From: an uncultured Thermomonas sp.
GTDB lineage: Bacteria > Pseudomonadota > Gammaproteobacteria > Xanthomonadales > Xanthomonadaceae
Length of the DNA: 64,000 nt
Direction of reading: 5' to 3'
Assembly (NCBI GenBank): GCA_966203835.1
Contig: CBIHKW010000004.1
Span: 705-64,704, forward strand
Part shown: one piece after another, positions 9,245-61,823 of the stretch
How the letters are laid out: the number at the start of each line of letters is the position of its first letter
Numbering within the stretch: the first letter of the stretch is position 1
Made by a program: the position numbers and the translations under genes
The notes under the pieces: generated by a model
Told to the model about the DNA's origin: nothing
Databases searched by the model: none
What the model saw: the letters and a program-made list of their open reading frames with translations, nothing else

Positions 9245-9356
9245 GGCACTCAACGCGGCATGCGCGAAAGCGCAGGCTGGGGTGGAACAGGGCTGGCCAC
9301 GTGCGCGCTGAGGGAGCCAGGGGCCGAATGTCGGGGGACATTCGGCCCCTTTTTTT
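9245..9356 (+). ncRNA. candidate small RNA (orphan promoter-to-terminator unit, about 110 nt)
   Basis: Bounded by the sigma54-like element and a perfect intrinsic terminator. No ORF ends before the terminator. Contains a gcgc-GAAA-gcgc tetraloop hairpin. The 5' end is only inferred. Confidence 0.35.
9320..9356 (+). terminator. rho-independent terminator
   Basis: Perfect 13-bp stem ggggccgaatgtc/gacattcggcccc, loop gggg, then seven T. It is oriented on the + strand, yet no + strand gene lies upstream (mnmG is divergent). Confidence 0.85.
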
Positions 9357-12840: not shown

Positions 12841-12930
12841 GACGACAGCTCGACGGTTTGCGCACCCGCTGCGATTCCGCATTTCGCCAGACCTCACCCA
12901 TCCGCAATTCCGACATCCGCAACATCGTAG

Positions 12931-12948
12931 GGCGTGCTCAAGCACGCC
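12931..12948. repeat. REP-type palindrome (GTAGGGCGTGCTCAAGCACGCC family)
   Basis: ggcgtgct-ca-agcacgcc preceded by gtag. A second copy in inverse orientation lies at 41025-41046. Confidence 0.7.
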
Positions 12949-12987
12949 GAATGAGCACACGGAAAACGCCTGATCGCGCGGCAACTC

Positions 12988-13074
12988 AGCCCGGATACGG
13001 CCAAAGGCCGTATCCGGATTGCATGAAGTCTGTGTCATTTCATCCCGGGTGCACGCGGCACGCGAACCCGGGCT
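12988..13074. repeat. REP pair (CCCGGG/CCGGAT hairpin family)
   Basis: Perfect 12-bp stem ccggatacggcc-aaa-ggccgtatccgg plus cccgggt-N15-acccggg. Same family as 13847-13923, 14444-14539 and 38017-38049. Confidence 0.7.
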
Positions 13075-13108
13075 ATCTACTGAATTGAACAGACCCGCAA
13101 AGCGGCCA

Positions 13109-13378
13109 CTAGAAAAAGATTGCGACGATTCCCGCAATGAAAACAATAGCGGAATATGCCATCAGCTTTGTCATGAACATCGTCCAACGGAAAACACGCT
13201 TGTGCGTTTCAGGGTTTTCTTTGATCGATGTGGACAGGGCGAGGACGAGCGCCAAGCATCCGCCGATGACCCACGTATTGATCGCCGCAGGTCCGTTACC
13301 CATGTCCGAAGCCGATGCACTGAATGAGCAGAGCAGCAAGCAGACAAAGCAATAGAAAACCCTCATGTGTACGTTCAT
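13109..13378 (-). CDS. small hypothetical membrane/secreted protein
   Basis: 89-aa ORF in the low-GC island with a signal-like N-terminus and two hydrophobic segments. An alternative start is at 13366. Confidence 0.45.
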   Translation of the reverse strand: MNVHMRVFYCFVCLLLCSFSASASDMGNGPAAINTWVIGGCLALVLALSTSIKENPETHKRVFRWTMFMTKLMAYSAIVFIAGIVAIFF

Positions 13379-13456
13379 CGCCTGCTCAATCCAATATTGA
13401 TCCTACACGCTGGAAAACATCACTGAATACGCCGAACGGCCCAGATCGGAGCGTGC

Positions 13457-13807
13457 TCATTCGCGCAAGAATTCCAGCCGCTTGATGAACAGGAATTCTT
13501 CGTCATCGGAAGGCCCGGCAATACGACCATCGTTGGGTTCGTGTTTGACGACGACCCGTACCTTGCGACCGACCATCGATTTCCTGAGATGCGATATCGC
13601 GTCATCGTCTTCAACAAACCAATCCCCGCATTGTTGGTTGCAGTAAGCGGAAATCGACTTGGACGAAGAAATCTGGACAGTGATCTGCATATCGTCGATG
13701 CCTCCGCCGTCCACGATCTTTCCTTCATATGTCTGCGCTTGCACGAGACGAGGCAACGCCATCAATGCGAAAAGCGCCAGGCTTGATGAAATATTTCGAT
13801 GAGTCAA
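13457..13807 (-). CDS. small secreted hypothetical protein
   Basis: 116 aa, TTG start preceded by AAGGA, signal peptide SSSLALFALMALPRLVQAQ. I recognise no family. Confidence 0.5.
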   Translation of the reverse strand: MTHRNISSSLALFALMALPRLVQAQTYEGKIVDGGGIDDMQITVQISSSKSISAYCNQQCGDWFVEDDDAISHLRKSMVGRKVRVVVKHEPNDGRIAGPSDDEEFLFIKRLEFLRE

Positions 13808-13846
13808 TTTGTAATTTCCTTAAAAATAAGACCTGCAACGCATCAG

Positions 13847-13923
13847 TTCCCGGCAAACGCAACGCACGCCCGGGATGAGGCCAATCCCAAGATCCCCGGG
13901 CGCAACCTTCCGCCTTGCTCCGG
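13847..13923. repeat. REP pair (CCCGGG hairpin family), degenerate
   Basis: Collinear with the 14444-14539 element. It directly abuts the stop codon of the NTF2-like ORF. Confidence 0.6.
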
Positions 13924-14310
13924 CTACTTAGCTACAAGCATGGCGCCCATGCGCTCGTGGATAAGCCCAATGGCTTTGAGCGGGCGGATCATGACCTTGA
14001 ACTCGACGACCTTGCCCGATTCGTTCCACTTGATGATGTCGACGCCGTTGACCAATACCCCATCGATCTCCGTCTCGAATTCCAGCATCGCATCGGAAGG
14101 ACCAATGATCTCGCGCACGTAGCGGAAGCTCGGGTTGAAGAACACCTGGAATGCGGCCGCGAGATAAGCCTGCGCTAGGGCTTTGCCGCGTTGGGGTGTA
14201 TGGACGACCGGCGAAAAGAACACGGCATCGTCAGCCAAGAGCTGATCCAGGCCTGAGGGATCGACGGATTCGACGAGTCGGTGCCATGTCTCGATTGGAT
14301 GCGGGTTCAT
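13924..14310 (-). CDS. NTF2/SnoaL-like domain protein
   Basis: 128 aa with the N-terminus WHRLVESVDPSGLDQLLADDAVFFSPVVHTP, typical of SnoaL-like proteins. Confidence 0.75.
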   Translation of the reverse strand: MNPHPIETWHRLVESVDPSGLDQLLADDAVFFSPVVHTPQRGKALAQAYLAAAFQVFFNPSFRYVREIIGPSDAMLEFETEIDGVLVNGVDIIKWNESGKVVEFKVMIRPLKAIGLIHERMGAMLVAK

Positions 14311-14346
14311 TGCGCTGACTCGCCTTCGATGGGGTTCATGACGCCT

Positions 14347-14416
14347 GGCACCTATTCGACCCCATCAAGGGGCGGTACCGAATAGTGATCCGGAATCTTC
14401 AAAAGTGTCAATGAAG
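14347..14416 (-). other. copy B of a ~70-bp island-specific repeat (TTGACA box plus nested hairpin) 5' of the NTF2-like ORF
   Basis: Roughly three-quarters identical, by eye, to the copy at 15791-15865. Reading the - strand: TTGACA, then N18, CACTAT, then ctattcg[...cccc-ttgat-gggg...]cgaatag. Confidence 0.5.
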
Positions 14417-14443
14417 GCTCATCAACGGCAGCAGTGCAGGGTC

Positions 14444-14539
14444 GTAGCCCGGGTAAGCGCAACGCGCGCACCCGGGATGGAGTCAAGTTCAACCTCTCCG
14501 AAGATTCCCGGGTGCGGCCTTCGGCCTTACCCGGGCTAC
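14444..14539. repeat. REP pair (GTAGCCCGGGTAAG...CTTACCCGGGCTAC)
   Basis: Two cccgggt-N15-acccggg hairpins in a ~96-bp imperfect palindrome. Confidence 0.75.
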
Positions 14540-14540
14540 G

Positions 14541-14669
14541 TCACTCAAATATTTCTGCATTTAACTCAAGTAGACCGTCATCTACAGAAAGAATATTCCC
14601 GTGGCGAGTCACAGGCAGGCCGTGTGATTCGAGTGCTTCTTTCAGATGGACGGTAATGATGTTGTTCAA
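14541..14669 (-). CDS. 42-codon ORF in a cassette slot (possible remnant)
   Basis: TTG start 4 nt after the GTTAGCC core of attC1. It translates to LNNIITVHLKEALESHGLPVTRHGNILSVDDGLLELNAEIFE. It is below the track threshold and I recognise no homology. Confidence 0.2.
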   Translation of the reverse strand: MNNIITVHLKEALESHGLPVTRHGNILSVDDGLLELNAEIFE

Positions 14670-14672
14670 AGG

Positions 14673-14732
14673 GGCTAACGCCTGAATTAAGCCGAGCCGC
14701 GAAGCGGCTTTGTCTTGAATGAATTGTTAGAT
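14673..14732 (-). other. integron attC site (60 bp, aadA-like 59-base element)
   Basis: The - strand reads ATCTAAC-AATTCATTCAAG...GCCGCTTCGCGGC...CGGCTTAATTCAGGC-GTTAGCC. It has RYYYAAC/GTTRRRY boxes and L boxes with one extrahelical base. The TAA stop of the upstream GNAT lies inside the R'' box. Confidence 0.8.
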
Positions 14733-15179
14733 GCCACGCGCATTGTCGCGCCGCATCATAAGCACAGGATCTGAATAGTGCTGATTGCACCAGAGATGTT
14801 TCTTTGCCACGTGGTCCGGAACACGCTGATCGGGCGACAAAAGTTGGAACCCCAGCCCTTCATACAGGGCGCGCAGATGGTTAAACGGTAGGCAATACAG
14901 GGTGTCGAGACCGCTTTCATCTATCAGATAGCGCACTAACGCAGATGAGATTCCGCCGCCGCGATGCTCAGGAAAAACATACATGCCCCCGAGCTCGCCT
15001 GCGATCTCTGAGATTCGTGTAACCCGACCTAGGCCAGCCGGAGTGCCAGCCACCTCCGCGACTGCGATGAGATCGGAAGGTGGTGATGGAAGAAAATCTA
15101 CCTCACCGTATCGTTGATTTGCCCAATCAAGCTCGTCGCCTCTCAGCTTTCTGACGCGAAGTGCGAGTGAATTCATCAT
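14727..15179 (-). CDS. GNAT family N-acetyltransferase (cassette ORF)
   Basis: 150 aa with the acetyl-CoA motif region VFPEHRGGGISSALV. The ATG sits 3 nt after the GTTAGAT core of attC2. Confidence 0.85.
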   Translation of the reverse strand: MMNSLALRVRKLRGDELDWANQRYGEVDFLPSPPSDLIAVAEVAGTPAGLGRVTRISEIAGELGGMYVFPEHRGGGISSALVRYLIDESGLDTLYCLPFNHLRALYEGLGFQLLSPDQRVPDHVAKKHLWCNQHYSDPVLMMRRDNARGI

Positions 15180-15182
15180 GGC

Positions 15183-15294
15183 ATCTAACGCCTGAGTTAA
15201 GCCGCCCCGCAGCGGGGCGGCGGACGCGTGCTAGCGTAGCGTATGCATGTGGCCGATGCCACGACATGGGGTCGGCTTGAACGAACTGTTAGGT
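15183..15294 (-). other. integron attC site (112 bp)
   Basis: The - strand reads ACCTAAC-AGTTCGTTCAAGCCG...(variable centre)...CGGCTTAACTCAGGC-GTTAGAT. The L'' box has an extrahelical C. The TAA stop of the upstream GNAT lies inside the R'' box. Confidence 0.75.
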
Positions 15295-15786
15295 GCCAAC
15301 CAGTTGATGCGCCATTTGTAACTCATCAATGTAGCTGCCATTGATTAAGACTGCACCGGGCTCACGAGCGAACTCACGGAACTGCAAGGACGAATACAAG
15401 TGGATGGCCCGAGTATTTGAAGCCAAGACCGTAAGGTAGAGATAGCGGAGGTCGCCCAAGTCATTTGCTAGATAGATGAGGTGCTTCAGCAATTCTCTTC
15501 CCGCACCTTGGCCGGCAGCATCGGGATGGATAAACATACGGGAAATAAGTCCCTTATGGCGCGTCTTGCTGCGTAGATCGCGCTCAAAGCTCACGATGCC
15601 GGTAAGCTTTTGACCGGTAAATGCCCCGAGAGTGAAGCTACCCGGCTTGTAGCGCGTCGGGATGCCCATAGGCAAATCATCGTCCGGAGCAATACGAAAG
15701 AAGGTGGAGTGTTCAGTGATGCCGTAGAGCCATAATGCCCGATATGCTTCGGTGTCATCTGGTTCGAGTTTGCGGATTTCTATCAT
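15289..15786 (-). CDS. GNAT family N-acetyltransferase (cassette ORF)
   Basis: MIEIRKLEPDD..., with the motif IHPDAAGQGAGRELL. I prefer the ATG at 15786 over the track's GTG at 15792, which lies inside the GTTAGGT core. Confidence 0.85.
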   Translation of the reverse strand: MIEIRKLEPDDTEAYRALWLYGITEHSTFFRIAPDDDLPMGIPTRYKPGSFTLGAFTGQKLTGIVSFERDLRSKTRHKGLISRMFIHPDAAGQGAGRELLKHLIYLANDLGDLRYLYLTVLASNTRAIHLYSSLQFREFAREPGAVLINGSYIDELQMAHQLVGT

Positions 15787-15790
15787 TGGC

Positions 15791-15865
15791 ACCTAACGCC
15801 TATTCGACCCCATCCGAGGGGTGGTGCCGGATATTGATCCGAAATCTTTATAGGTGTCAACGAAG
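15791..15865 (-). other. copy A of the ~70-bp repeat, ending in an AGGCGTTAGGT attC/attI-type core
   Basis: The - strand reads TTGACA-N18-CAATAT...cccc-tcggat-gggg...cgaatAGGCGTTAGGTgccaATG. Both attC sites share the same AGGCGTTAG 3' end. No matching CTAAC box lies between it and bioC. Confidence 0.5.
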
Positions 15866-15905
15866 ACTCGTCAAGCCAATGACGATAACCGCAGTCTGCC
15901 TCGTT

Positions 15906-16844
15906 CTACTCGACCCGACGCCGCACCGGAATCCCACTCGCCGGAAACCTCGCCACATCTTCTCCGCTTTCGCGAATCGGCACGCCGTGTTCGGGCGCCC
16001 ATGCCAGCGCCGAGATGATTTCCCAGGTCGCAGGCAGATGATCGTTGTCGCGAAACGTTTCGTAGGCATTCGCGGCCGCGGCGAAGCGCGCCTTGCCGGT
16101 GAGCGTGTGCCGGCGCGCGTGCAGGGCGTTGGTGGCGCCGATGGCGCGCAGTTCGCGCATCAGCGCGGGCAGGTCGTCGTAGCGGGTGGTGAGTTCGTCG
16201 CGGTCGAGCACCGGGTTGCGGAAGCCGCTGGCGATCAGCGCATCGCCGAACTGCGCGATGGAGGCGAACGGGCTGACGTGCGGCACGGCGTCGGCCTCGG
16301 CGAACGCGCCGCGCAGTTCGTACAGCGTGTCGGGGCCGAAGGTTGAGACCACCAGCATGCCGCCGGGTTTGAGCACGCGGCGGAATCCTGCGAACACCGC
16401 GGGCAGATCCTCGATCCACTGCAGGCAGAGATTCGAGAACAGCAGATCGACGCTGTGATCGGCCAGCGGCAGCGCGCGCGCGTCGGCGCAGATGCGTGCG
16501 GGTGCGCGAGCGAGCAGGCGCGAGAGCGCGCCGGGCAGCGCACGCGCGAAGGCCGAGGTTTCGGCGTCGTGCTGGCGCAGCATCGGCAATGCGAGATCGA
16601 TCGCGAGCACCTGCGCTTTCGGCCAACGCTGCTGCAGCGCGCGCGAGGCATGGCCCGGGCCGCAGCCGAGATCGACGACGAGCGACGGCGTCTGCGCATC
16701 GCCGTCGCGGCCTTCCGCGTAGTAATCGAGCGATTCTAGCAGCCACGATTCGACTTCACGCTGCAACTTCGCGGCATCGGCATAGCTGGCGGACGCGCGC
16801 GAGAACGCACGACGCACCTGGCGCGGGTCGAACAGGGCGGTCAT
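15906..16844 (-). CDS. bioC: malonyl-ACP O-methyltransferase BioC
   Basis: 312 aa with the SAM motif VVDLGCGPG, in bio-operon context. Its start overlaps the bioH stop (ATGA). Confidence 0.9.
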   Translation of the reverse strand: MTALFDPRQVRRAFSRASASYADAAKLQREVESWLLESLDYYAEGRDGDAQTPSLVVDLGCGPGHASRALQQRWPKAQVLAIDLALPMLRQHDAETSAFARALPGALSRLLARAPARICADARALPLADHSVDLLFSNLCLQWIEDLPAVFAGFRRVLKPGGMLVVSTFGPDTLYELRGAFAEADAVPHVSPFASIAQFGDALIASGFRNPVLDRDELTTRYDDLPALMRELRAIGATNALHARRHTLTGKARFAAAANAYETFRDNDHLPATWEIISALAWAPEHGVPIRESGEDVARFPASGIPVRRRVE

Positions 16845-17650
16845 CGCGATGCGTCGTTCATCGGAATATCCGACAGAAATGTCGATACATGCGCAACAAC
16901 CTCATCGACATGGGTCAGAAACGGCGCATGCCCCGCGTGTTCGATCTGCGCGAAGGTCGCGGGCGCATGGCCAGTCTGTTCGATCATCGCGACGGCCTCG
17001 CGCATCGCGCGCGGGTCGACCAGGCGGTCGCGACGGCCGGCGATCCACAGACTCGGCACGCGCAATTGCGGGAGCAGCGGCCGCTGATCGACGGTTTCGA
17101 GAATGCGCAGGCCGTCGACGAGCACGCGCGCCGCGGGTTCGCCGCGTGCGAACAGTTCGGCGCGCAGTTCGCGCATCTCTTCCTTGGCGTGATCGGAGCC
17201 GAAGGCTTCCAGCGCGACGAAACGATCGAGCGTGGCGCGATAATCGTCGCTCAGGCCTTTGGCGAAATCGCGGAAGATCTCCGCCGACACGCCGTAGCGC
17301 CAGTCGGGGCCGCGCACGAAACACGGGCTGCTGCACAGCGCGATCAGCGCCGGCACTCGAGCTGGGTCGCGTACCGCCGCATGCAGCGCGAACATGCCGC
17401 CCAACGACCAGCCGAGCCACGGCGCGACCGGCGTCTGTGCGCGGATGGCCTCGCAGACCGCATCGAATTCGAGCGGCGTTGCGTGATCGCGACTCAGGCC
17501 GTGACCGGGCAGGTCGATCACATGCAGCGTGTATCGATCGCGCAGGCGTTCGACCAGCGCAGCGAAGACGCCGCCGTGCATCGCCCAGCCGTGCAGCAAC
17601 ACCAGCGGCGGGCCGTCGCCGCTGACAGTCATGTGCAGACGTTCGCTCAT
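16841..17650 (-). CDS. bioH: pimeloyl-ACP methyl ester carboxylesterase BioH
   Basis: I chose the internal start [29 protein letters not shown]. It has the nucleophile elbow GWSLGG and sits between bioF and bioC. Confidence 0.85.
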   Translation of the reverse strand: MSERLHMTVSGDGPPLVLLHGWAMHGGVFAALVERLRDRYTLHVIDLPGHGLSRDHATPLEFDAVCEAIRAQTPVAPWLGWSLGGMFALHAAVRDPARVPALIALCSSPCFVRGPDWRYGVSAEIFRDFAKGLSDDYRATLDRFVALEAFGSDHAKEEMRELRAELFARGEPAARVLVDGLRILETVDQRPLLPQLRVPSLWIAGRRDRLVDPRAMREAVAMIEQTGHAPATFAQIEHAGHAPFLTHVDEVVAHVSTFLSDIPMNDASR

Positions 17651-25854: not shown

Positions 25855-25968
25855 CGGATGCAACGTCCGTCGCAGACCACCCCCTCCCCTGGAGTGGTCG
25901 CCGGAACGTAAGACTCTCCCCAAGTCCCGTTCCCAGCCCCGCCGGTTCCCCCACCTGCGGGGCTTTTT
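25855..25968 (+). ncRNA. sX13-like small RNA (three C-rich-loop hairpins, the last a terminator)
   Basis: Three hairpins: 25875-25899 (loop CCCCUCCCCUGGA), 25903-25933 (apical loop CUCCCCA) and 25935-25964 (loop containing UUCCCCCA) followed by a U-run. It lies downstream of polA, as I recall for Xanthomonas sX13. The 5' end is uncertain by about 20 nt. Confidence 0.6.
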
Positions 25969-26038
25969 ATTGCCCGACGTTTTGTCATTGCCCGGCACCA
26001 GGAGGACACTGGCCGCATCTGCCCCTCCGGTGCCGCCC

Positions 26039-61557: not shown

Positions 61558-61823
61558 TCCGCCTTGTGCTGCTGGACGTGGGCCGACAGCGCGCGCAGCG
61601 AACCGAAGATGAGGCGGTTGTCGTCGTTGTCGGAACGCAGCTGGAAACCGTATTTCTTGCTGATCGCCAGCGACAGTTCCAGCGCGTCGATCGAGTCCAG
61701 GCCGAGGCCGGCGCCGAACAGGGGCGCGTCCGGGTCGATCCCGGCGGGGGCGATGCTTTCGAGGTTCAGGCTCTCGACCAGCAATTCCGCCAGTTCAAGT
61801 TCGGCGGGAGTCAGTGCAGACAT
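61554..61823 (-). CDS. acyl carrier protein
   Basis: 89 aa with the phosphopantetheine site LGLDSID. I chose the internal start MSALTPAELE of track ORF 61554..62291. Confidence 0.85.
   Translation of the reverse strand: MSALTPAELELAELLVESLNLESIAPAGIDPDAPLFGAGLGLDSIDALELSLAISKKYGFQLRSDNDDNRLIFGSLRALSAHVQQHKAE

Follow-up and report, generated by a model that had tools for sequence, protein, structure and literature searches.

A probable remnant of a sedentary chromosomal integron, without its integrase gene, downstream of bioC in an uncultured Thermomonas sp.

A stretch of 64,000 nucleotides from an uncultured Thermomonas sp. (assembly GCA_966203835.1, contig CBIHKW010000004.1, positions 705 to 64,704; hereafter the window) carries, between bioC and a convergent SnoaL-like gene, a low-GC island with two imperfect palindromes that resemble the attC recombination sites of integron gene cassettes. 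The locus raises the question of whether the island is a cluster of attC sites lacking an integron integrase (CALIN) and, if so, whether the cassettes were brought to this site or remained here after loss of the integrase gene intI. An original prediction made from the sequence alone had placed such an array at 13100-15870. Our analysis indicates that the part from 15874 to about 14545 very probably derives by decay from a sedentary chromosomal integron whose intI was lost in situ, i.e. it is a CALIN. In this demonstrable cassette array, two cassettes are complete and a third is truncated. The low-GC island as a whole is composite, because its part from 14545 to 12850 is without detectable attC, and the demonstrable CALIN is limited to the left 1.3 kb.

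attC sites, cassettes and attI

Both palindromes (attC1 and attC2, Table 1) were found at exactly the predicted coordinates and with the predicted boxes, the inverted cores RYYYAAC (R'') and GTTRRRY (R') lying 5' and 3', respectively, on the cassette-sense strand. As had also been claimed, and as could be read in the sequence, the TAA stop codon of each of the two GNAT genes sits within the RYYYAAC box and the following open reading frame (ORF) begins 3 nt (3-4 nt in the original prediction) past the GTTRRRY core. The bottom strands of 29 attC sites from six related loci (L072, L020, L019, L018, L021 and L024) were aligned, the sites of the window being excluded, and a covariance model (R1) was derived from the alignment and run across the whole 64-kb window with filters off. 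The model matched attC1 with 103.1 bits (E 6.2e-26) and attC2 with 56.3 bits (E 4.2e-13), both on the + strand, which is the bottom strand expected for cassettes on the - strand. No further significant match was obtained in the rest of the window, the next best having an E-value of 0.28. Both sites align end to end with R1, whose consensus fold comprises five R-box pairs, a 6-nt unpaired spacer and eight L-box pairs, with compensatory changes at two pairs. The bottom strand of attC1 alone also folds with its R and L boxes paired (-28.6 kcal/mol, z -2.8). In known attC sites, extrahelical bulged bases mark the bottom strand for the integrase; read from the sequence, L'' (GTTCAAGCC) is one base longer than the complement of L' (GGCTTAAC), implying a bulged G on the bottom strand. 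The two palindromes are spaced and oriented as in a CALIN, for which two or more attC sites must lie within less than 4 kb of each other on one strand; here they are 451 bp apart on the same strand. Both are predicted to be bona fide attC sites of the Xanthomonadales type, and both still look recombination-competent. Rfam holds no attC family.

Two length classes of repeats, of about 112 bp and about 60 bp, could be observed at the bioC arrays of relatives. attC1 is 88-93% identical to long-class attC sites of L072, L021, L024 and L003, and attC2 is 96-98% identical to short attC sites of L072 and L019. Across 80 related loci, significant R1 matches were found solely downstream of bioC in the Lysobacteraceae clade, with a single exception; this is a lone attC-like match (36 bits, E 3.5e-6) at L047 1132-1191 in Pseudoxanthomonas sacheonensis, about 9 kb upstream of bioC. 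Among plasmid records, at least 5000 matched attC2, with up to 92% identity. The best match was the attC after qacF, downstream of intI1 in the array intI1-qnrVC4-qacF-blaOXA-10-aadA1-dfrA14, and further matches were the ends of aadA16, catB3 and sat2 cassettes in class 1 integrons. The aadA16, catB3, qacF and sat2 cassettes were placed by Ghaly et al. in a Xanthomonadales-like attC clade, which was also detected in Lysobacter, Luteimonas, Thermomonas and others (PMC8352920).

A search with the GNAT 1 protein yielded a 92%-identical protein (P0004) on L083, a metagenomic contig of 7.5 kb in which R1 detects at least 15 attC sites. Cassette 1 and L083 1709-2316 align without indels over exactly 608 bp, with 92.4% identity. 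This homology begins with the TT of the core on the upstream side and closes with the G of the core on the downstream side; over the 60 nt beyond either crossover point, identity is about 50%. Upstream of the cassette there is attI in the window and another attC in L083, and the neighbouring cassettes downstream are unrelated. Breakpoints of this kind point to site-specific recombination of attI with attC and of attC with attC. Because the homology starts and ends at the two G/TT points, cassette 1 was probably inserted by an attI x attC event. Cassette 1, the one tested, is thereby found as a unit of ORF and attC in differing arrays, which is what defines a gene cassette. The 42-aa ORF of cassette 3 encodes only the N-terminal part of a cassette protein of 225 aa. 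The intact ORF of this protein is found in L072, within a cassette bounded by attC sites at 16794-16854 and 17530-17640. Positions 14730->14545 of the window show 83% nucleotide identity to L072 16796-16982, and the homology stops at the edge of the palindrome named A in Table 1.

A third core before the first GNAT had been noticed in the original prediction at 15797->15791, about 110 bp from the bioC stop codon. This core, GTTAGGT, was found 108 bp from the stop codon and 4 nt ahead of the ATG of the first GNAT. It is predicted to be the attI crossover site, because the 84 nt at 15874-15791 are conserved directly after bioC in six relatives (L001, L003, L004, L005, L006 and L007) and are collinear with the attI of L072, L020, L019 and L016, with the TTGAC motif, CCCC..GGGGTC and the GTTAGG core in common. 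attI would thus have survived, and only intI would have been lost. An attI lies between intI and the first cassette, has a terminal GTTRRRY core where cassettes are inserted, and is specific to its integrase. Within the stretch there are two direct repeats of GTTGAC, a palindrome CGGAT-CAAT-ATCCG and the motif CCCC-N5-GGGGTC, and about 30 nt are left between the bioC stop codon and the start of the attI homology. Both the cassette homology with L083 and the divergence among close relatives start immediately after the CGTT of attI. A first scan of metagenomes with a long attI pattern gave no match. A shorter pattern recovered more relatives without intI, and in these metagenomes no intI-linked copy of the window type of attI was found. 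A 689-bp contig of the European Nucleotide Archive (ENA; ERZ27396981, L082) is near-identical to attI, cassette 1 and the start of cassette 2 of the window; its attC1 has the R' core GTTTGAT, compared with GTTAGAT in the window, so that the two samples differ by a single base inside the crossover core.

NCBIfam yielded only sub-cutoff RimI-like matches for GNAT 1 and none for GNAT 2, and no resistance family was matched. In tblastn searches of plasmids, identities of the two GNATs did not exceed 37% and 43%, and no match lay in a resistance integron. To judge from these searches, neither of the two acetyltransferase genes is recognisable as a resistance gene. A 79%-identical homologue of GNAT 1 (P0010) was observed at L084 8001-8498 in an ordinary chromosomal setting, between genes for a DegP-like protease and a glutathione S-transferase and without an attC; it is a candidate for the type of resident gene from which the cassette was recruited.

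The bioC site in relatives and the loss of intI

BioC, the flanking SnoaL protein and the island proteins were mapped onto the 80 related loci. Stenotrophomonas and Pseudoxanthomonas have nothing between bioC and the SnoaL gene, which are separated by about 80 bp, compared with 1-8 kb of variable content in the Lysobacteraceae clade. In eight loci (L072, L019, L020, L021, L024, L018, L001 and L003) the L'-R' half of the window palindromes is found again in arrays that follow bioC, in every case on the same strand as bioC. Two of these loci, L072 and L020, have an ORF of 355 and 352 aa, respectively, between bioC and the array and convergent with bioC. These ORFs pass the NCBIfam model TIGR02249 'integron integrase' with 482 and 455 bits (cutoff 265). 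The intI is followed in both by an attI-like stretch (...CCCC-N5-GGGGTC-N8-GTTAGGC) and then by the first cassette, with 14 attC matches of R1 after attI in L072 and 10 in L020. When the L072 integrase was used in tblastn, internally deleted fragments were found in L019 and L018 and an N-terminal stub in L016. No intI was detected by this search in the window, L001, L003 or L005 (E <= 1e-3); the best match in the window, about 5.7 kb away, had an E-value of 0.79 over 51 aa with 29% identity. The window therefore does not hold a complete integron, in which intI adjoins attI and the array.

We propose that a Lysobacteraceae ancestor carried a sedentary integron between bioC and the convergent SnoaL-like gene, and that intI would later have been deleted outright, while attI, two complete cassettes and the first 133 bp of a third persisted. 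In integrons, attC bottom strands form hairpins in which the R and L boxes are paired, and the integrase cuts between G and TT. The cassettes of the window would now be fixed for want of an integrase in cis, unless one were provided from elsewhere in the genome or by an incoming element. Their expression would probably depend on read-through from the co-oriented bio genes (bioC and the bioH- and bioF-like ORFs) or on a promoter in attI; the route is given tentatively because, between 12300 and 16100, no sigma-70-like promoter was found in a scan and terminator-like hairpins occurred at chance level only. The original prediction had left it at 'inserted or left behind' at the 3' end of the bio operon. 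The second option appears to be the right one, because relatives carry intI, attI and an array at exactly the bioC-SnoaL position. The prediction of an integrase-less array stands in so far as two attC sites and no intI are present in the 64 kb, and does not extend to the rest of the low-GC block, where there is no significant attC. Similarly, the suggestion that the intI/attI module had been lost or lies elsewhere agrees with the window as regards intI and fails as regards attI, which is retained.

Several points weigh against this interpretation. The number of significant attC sites is two, which is the minimum for a CALIN, and R1 is a family-specific stand-in for attc_4, the general attC model of IntegronFinder, so that its E-values are rough. 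The minimum-energy fold of the isolated 60-nt attC2 leaves the R boxes unpaired. The likeness of the window attI to the attI of intI-bearing relatives consists of common landmarks, with about 45-50% identity by eye. The search for intI covered the 64 kb of the window, and an intI elsewhere in the source genome is possible. Finally, the right-hand two thirds of the island (14545-12850), being without detectable attC, cannot be shown to be cassettes.

The window was also compared segment by segment with its four closest relatives (L001, L003, L004 and L005; Table 1). Across the bioC-to-SnoaL interval, cassette content was found to be strongly variable among relatives. A collinear bioC-attI junction without intI is common to the window, these four relatives, L007, L085, L086 and L088, the last being contig JAESGK010000004.1. 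The metagenome relatives L085, L086 and L088/L090 show the same junction, yet with other arrays, some of which have weak or no attC sites. In each relative with an examinable array the first cassette is a different one, and divergence sets in right after the 'CGTT' of attI. The simplest reading of these sequences is that intI was lost once and that the cassettes at attI changed afterward. Such a change after the loss of intI would need an integrase acting in trans or replacement through homologous recombination.

The first of these two routes would make the locus a working acquisition platform, where attI and the attC sites are used by a trans-supplied integrase and cassettes are still turning over. 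At least nine related genomes share the one collinear junction, with a different first cassette in each, joined precisely at the G/TT of attI wherever the array could be examined, and homologous recombination between attC sites cannot alter the cassette that is joined to attI. In addition, the attC sites of the window are intact and cassette 1 is 92% identical to its copy in a foreign array. The same pattern could, however, have arisen by replacement of the array through homologous recombination with other strains, with crossovers in bioC/attI and in the conserved block right of the array. The attC sites are weak or absent in some relatives, as expected for unused decay (36 and 23 bits in L085, none in L086), and the attI core is altered in L003, L004 and L007, although the bases after G/TT derive from the incoming cassette. 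The integrase search, moreover, reached no further than the 64-kb window. We regard an integrase in trans as a serious possibility that still falls somewhat short of being probable. If it were true, a CALIN with a retained attI would be no fossil but a live 'orphan docking site'.

Much less probable is a secondary placement of the cassettes, either by attG-type insertion at a secondary site by an integrase encoded elsewhere or by rearrangement, in a lineage where no integron had ever been resident. Both are recognised routes to a CALIN (PMC4889954), and no intI pseudogene is left in the window. Against this, relatives have intI, attI and an array in the same intergenic position and others show intermediate decay of intI, and the 84 nt before the first cassette are collinear with the attI of relatives and conserved across the intI-less clade. 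As far as the ORF list shows, the array has no insertion sequence or transposase beside it. That the palindromes are ordinary intergenic repeats (repetitive extragenic palindromes (REPs) or terminators) in a horizontally acquired low-GC island, with a coincidental match to the boxes, is barely credible: the island does hold a strongly folding GTAG-type palindrome that is not an attC, as well as a weak, sub-threshold Rfam match to a REP-derived small RNA (sRNA) family, but the R1 matches stand out clearly (E 6e-26 and 4e-13 versus a background of E >=0.28), attC2 shares 92% identity with attC sites adjoining intI1 in plasmid integrons, the same two repeat classes are arrayed beside bona fide integron integrases, and the homology breakpoints are cassette-exact.

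Other rearrangements could be observed at the bioC site of relatives. At about 15360-15420 of L021, a truncated attC consisting of the L'' box only (ttcgttcaagccg) is joined to a fragment resembling the 3' end of the flanking SnoaL gene, after which a REPIN-like (REP doublet) palindrome follows. At about 11400-11570 of L015, after a homologue of the 116-aa ORF of the island, there is, by eye, an apparent partial duplication of the bioC 3' end (...LDRDDLVTRYDDLPALMRALRATGATNALHARRHTLTGK...), which points to rearrangements at the bioC site even in genomes without attC sites. An island of the tRNA or phage-type integrase kind was considered as well and rejected; the sole tRNA of the window is at 61735, and no tyrosine recombinase was detectable.

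Composition and remaining content of the island

The island (12841-15905) has a GC content of 0.543, compared with 0.675 in the remaining window. In a 400-nt sliding window GC was 0.52-0.57 over about 12850-15900, with 0.65-0.72 in the flanks on either side. The A+T-rich block that had been seen by eye at 13100-15870 was thus borne out by calculation, except that its left edge lies about 250 bp further left than 13100. GC content at third codon positions (GC3) is shifted likewise, with 0.42-0.74 for the ORFs of the island compared with 0.75-0.87 for bioC, bioH, bioF, the PALP gene and the flanking SnoaL gene. Six plausible ORFs were found in the island (ORF list), all short and every one on the - strand, as predicted; Pfam supports the assignment of two of the proteins to GNAT and a SnoaL_2 domain in another.

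bioC lies within a run of ORFs that also holds a putative bioH (Pfam Abhydrolase_1) and a putative bioF, a label that comes from the ORF list with no family library scan behind it. The BioC protein is 95-97% identical to that of several uncultured Lysobacteraceae metagenome-assembled genomes (MAGs), 80-85% to that of Lysobacter brunescens, L. hankyongensis and related MAGs, and 61-68% to that of Stenotrophomonas, Pseudoxanthomonas and Luteimonas. Outside the island, the Xanthomonadaceae sRNAs asX1 (80.6 bits) and sX13 (56.7 bits) were detected above the Rfam gathering thresholds at 9247-9355 and 25862-25969.

Table 1. Positions of the features and compared segments in the window (relatives: L001, L003, L005 and L004)
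Feature	Position	Strand	Remarks
bioC, malonyl-ACP O-methyltransferase-like	15906..16844	-	Conserved left flank; transcription toward the array; Methyltransf_11/25 domains (Pfam)
attI copy 1, ~84 nt	15791..15874	-	Predicted; ends in crossover core GTTAGGT (15797->15791)
Cassette 1, 608 bp	15189..15796	-	GNAT acetyltransferase and attC1
GNAT 1, 165 aa, protein P0001	ATG 15786 to TAA 15289	-	ORF list 15289-15786/15792; Pfam Acetyltransf_1, E 2e-14
attC1, long class, 112 bp	15183..15294	-	Predicted; R'' ACCTAAC, R' GTTAGAT; recombinogenic bottom strand is the + strand of the window
Cassette 2, 510 bp	14679..15188	-	Second GNAT and attC2; bounded by the G/TT of attC1 and attC2
GNAT 2, 150 aa	14727-15179	-	Pfam Acetyltransf_7 and Acetyltransf_1
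attC2, short class, 60 bp	14673..14732	-	Predicted; R'' ATCTAAC, R' GTTAGCC
Cassette 3, truncated, first 133 bp	14546..14678	-	42-aa ORF 14541-14669, TTG start
Palindrome A, ~100 nt	14440..14545	.	Two inverted GTAG-CCCGGG hairpins; REPIN-like, not attC
attI copy 2, paralogue	14351..14425	-	83% identical to copy 1; GTT core replaced; directly upstream of SnoaL128
SnoaL128, 128 aa	13924..14310	-	Pfam SnoaL_2, E 1e-8; in the block common to close relatives
Palindrome B, degraded copy of A	13845..13925	.	Begins at the TAG stop codon of SnoaL128
116-aa putative secreted protein	13457-13807	-	In V2; signal-peptide-like N-terminus; no Pfam/NCBIfam match
89-aa hydrophobic protein	13109-13378	-	In V2; no Pfam/NCBIfam match
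Possible relic, L'-R' half of a short attC (GCGGGTCTGTTCAATTCAGTAGATAG)	13073..13098	-	Core GTT changed to GTA; weak evidence
Flanking SnoaL-like gene, 146 aa	12400..12840	+	Convergent with bioC; conserved right flank; Pfam SnoaL_2, E 6e-15
Segment: flanks			~90% nt identical to the relatives
Segment: bioC and attI	down to ~15783		Conserved in the relatives
Segment V1	15783->14545		attC sites themselves the only thing in common with the relatives
Segment: block	14539->13849		82-88% nt identical in the relatives
Segment V2	13849->12945		Again differs from the relatives
Segment: right flank			Conserved in the relatives

Palindrome A has arms of 40 nt that are 80% complementary, and its DNA fold is strong (-38.5 kcal/mol, z -7.3); palindrome B folds no better than shuffled sequences (z -0.15). 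Copies of this GTAG-CCCGGG palindrome occur at 14440-14545, 13845-13925 and 13041-13075 and start at the stop codon of the upstream ORF. The palindrome is confined to the bioC-SnoaL island of the window and of eight relatives, being absent elsewhere in the 64-kb window and in about 1.3 Mb of related loci outside the island. The homology with close relatives resumes exactly at the left edge of palindrome A, where cassette 3 is cut off (14545). Two further readings of the copies (A, B and C) were rejected, namely a third attC class, as they have no AAC/GTT cores and no R1 score, and a genome-wide REP, as they were found inside the island only. A permissive Rfam scan of the island gave a sub-threshold match of naRNA4, a REP-derived sRNA, on palindrome A and nothing else.

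The block that close relatives have in common is made up of palindrome A, the second copy of attI, the SnoaL128 gene and palindrome B. The second copy of attI has GCC in place of the core in the window and GCG in relatives. It is conserved in L001, L003, L004, L005, L085, L086 and L090, and was located at 12724-12827 in L001, 12844-12952 in L003 and 12380-12488 in L005. In the window it is followed by a 10-codon upstream ORF (MNPIEGESAQ*), the stop codon of which overlaps the start of SnoaL128 (ATGA). The SnoaL128 protein is 84-93% identical in the same seven relatives; it is not a demonstrable cassette. The two ORFs of V2 (13109..13807) are present in L085 and L086 and absent in L001, L003 and L005, and in L010, L012, L015 and L037 a homologue of the 116-aa ORF immediately follows bioC, with neither attI nor attC present. 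That these two ORFs are cassettes was considered and could not be established, as they have no attC and the 116-aa gene follows bioC without attI or attC in another clade. The possible attC relic at 13073-13098 is 73% identical to the corresponding half of attC2 and was not detected by R1.

Comparison with known integrons

The bioC locus presents a decay series at one chromosomal site, from an intact intI through an internally deleted gene and an N-terminal stub to a clean deletion with attI kept, and documents the 'loss of intI' route to a CALIN directly. It extends the Xanthomonadales-type attC family, which is borne by clinical resistance cassettes (aadA, catB3, qacF and sat2), to an uncultured Lysobacteraceae lineage, and adds bioC to ilvD as a second conserved chromosomal site for this family. 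Its practical weight is limited, the acetyltransferases not being recognisable resistance genes. It is of modest interest that the decay can be traced, that attI has been kept and is present in two copies, and that there is a hint of cassette change after integrase loss.

A CALIN is defined by at least two attC sites without a nearby intI, with intI loss listed as one possible origin (Cury et al. 2016, PMC4889954). The window resembles known CALINs in its same-strand attC sites 451 bp apart, each 3' of a short promoterless ORF with no intI nearby, and in that its cassettes are of unknown function and not resistance genes. It differs in that the origin of the array can be traced, as at this locus intI is intact in some syntenic relatives, fragmented in others and missing from still others. 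Recognisable intI pseudogenes were found near only 15 of 279 CALINs, 95% being without (Cury et al. 2016, PMC4889954). The window has no intI pseudogene either, but unusually attI is still present.

The array can also be compared with the class 1 integron carrying qacF-blaOXA-10-aadA1 on plasmid pTB221 (NZ_CP032238.1), whose attC after qacF is 92% identical to attC2 over 65 nt. As in class 1 integron cassettes, the stop codon lies in R'' and the next ORF begins a few nucleotides after R'. Unlike class 1 integrons, the element of the window is chromosomal, without intI1, Tn402 or the context of a 3'-conserved segment (3'-CS), and its GNATs share no more than 43% identity with any product of the plasmids searched.

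Further close parallels are the sedentary integrons of the Xanthomonadales, i.e. those at ilvD in Xanthomonas and that of Lysobacter oculi with catB3 and qacI, which share with the window the host order and the 'Xanthomonadales-like' attC family (PMC8352920; bioRxiv 10.1101/2025.06.18.660453). A bioC-linked integron was not described in the literature found by a limited search, and the term bioC is absent from the Xanthomonas integron paper (bioRxiv 10.1101/2025.06.18.660453). In Xanthomonas, the integron was already present in the ancestor of the genus and is found downstream of ilvD, its intI is often inactivated, and CALINs are common at other loci (bioRxiv 10.1101/2025.06.18.660453). The site thus differs, being ilvD in Xanthomonas and the space between bioC and the convergent SnoaL gene in the window, and so does the fate of intI, which was inactivated by point mutations in the former and removed completely in the latter. 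Common to both are an ancestral integron, lineage-specific arrays and the frequent inactivation of intI.

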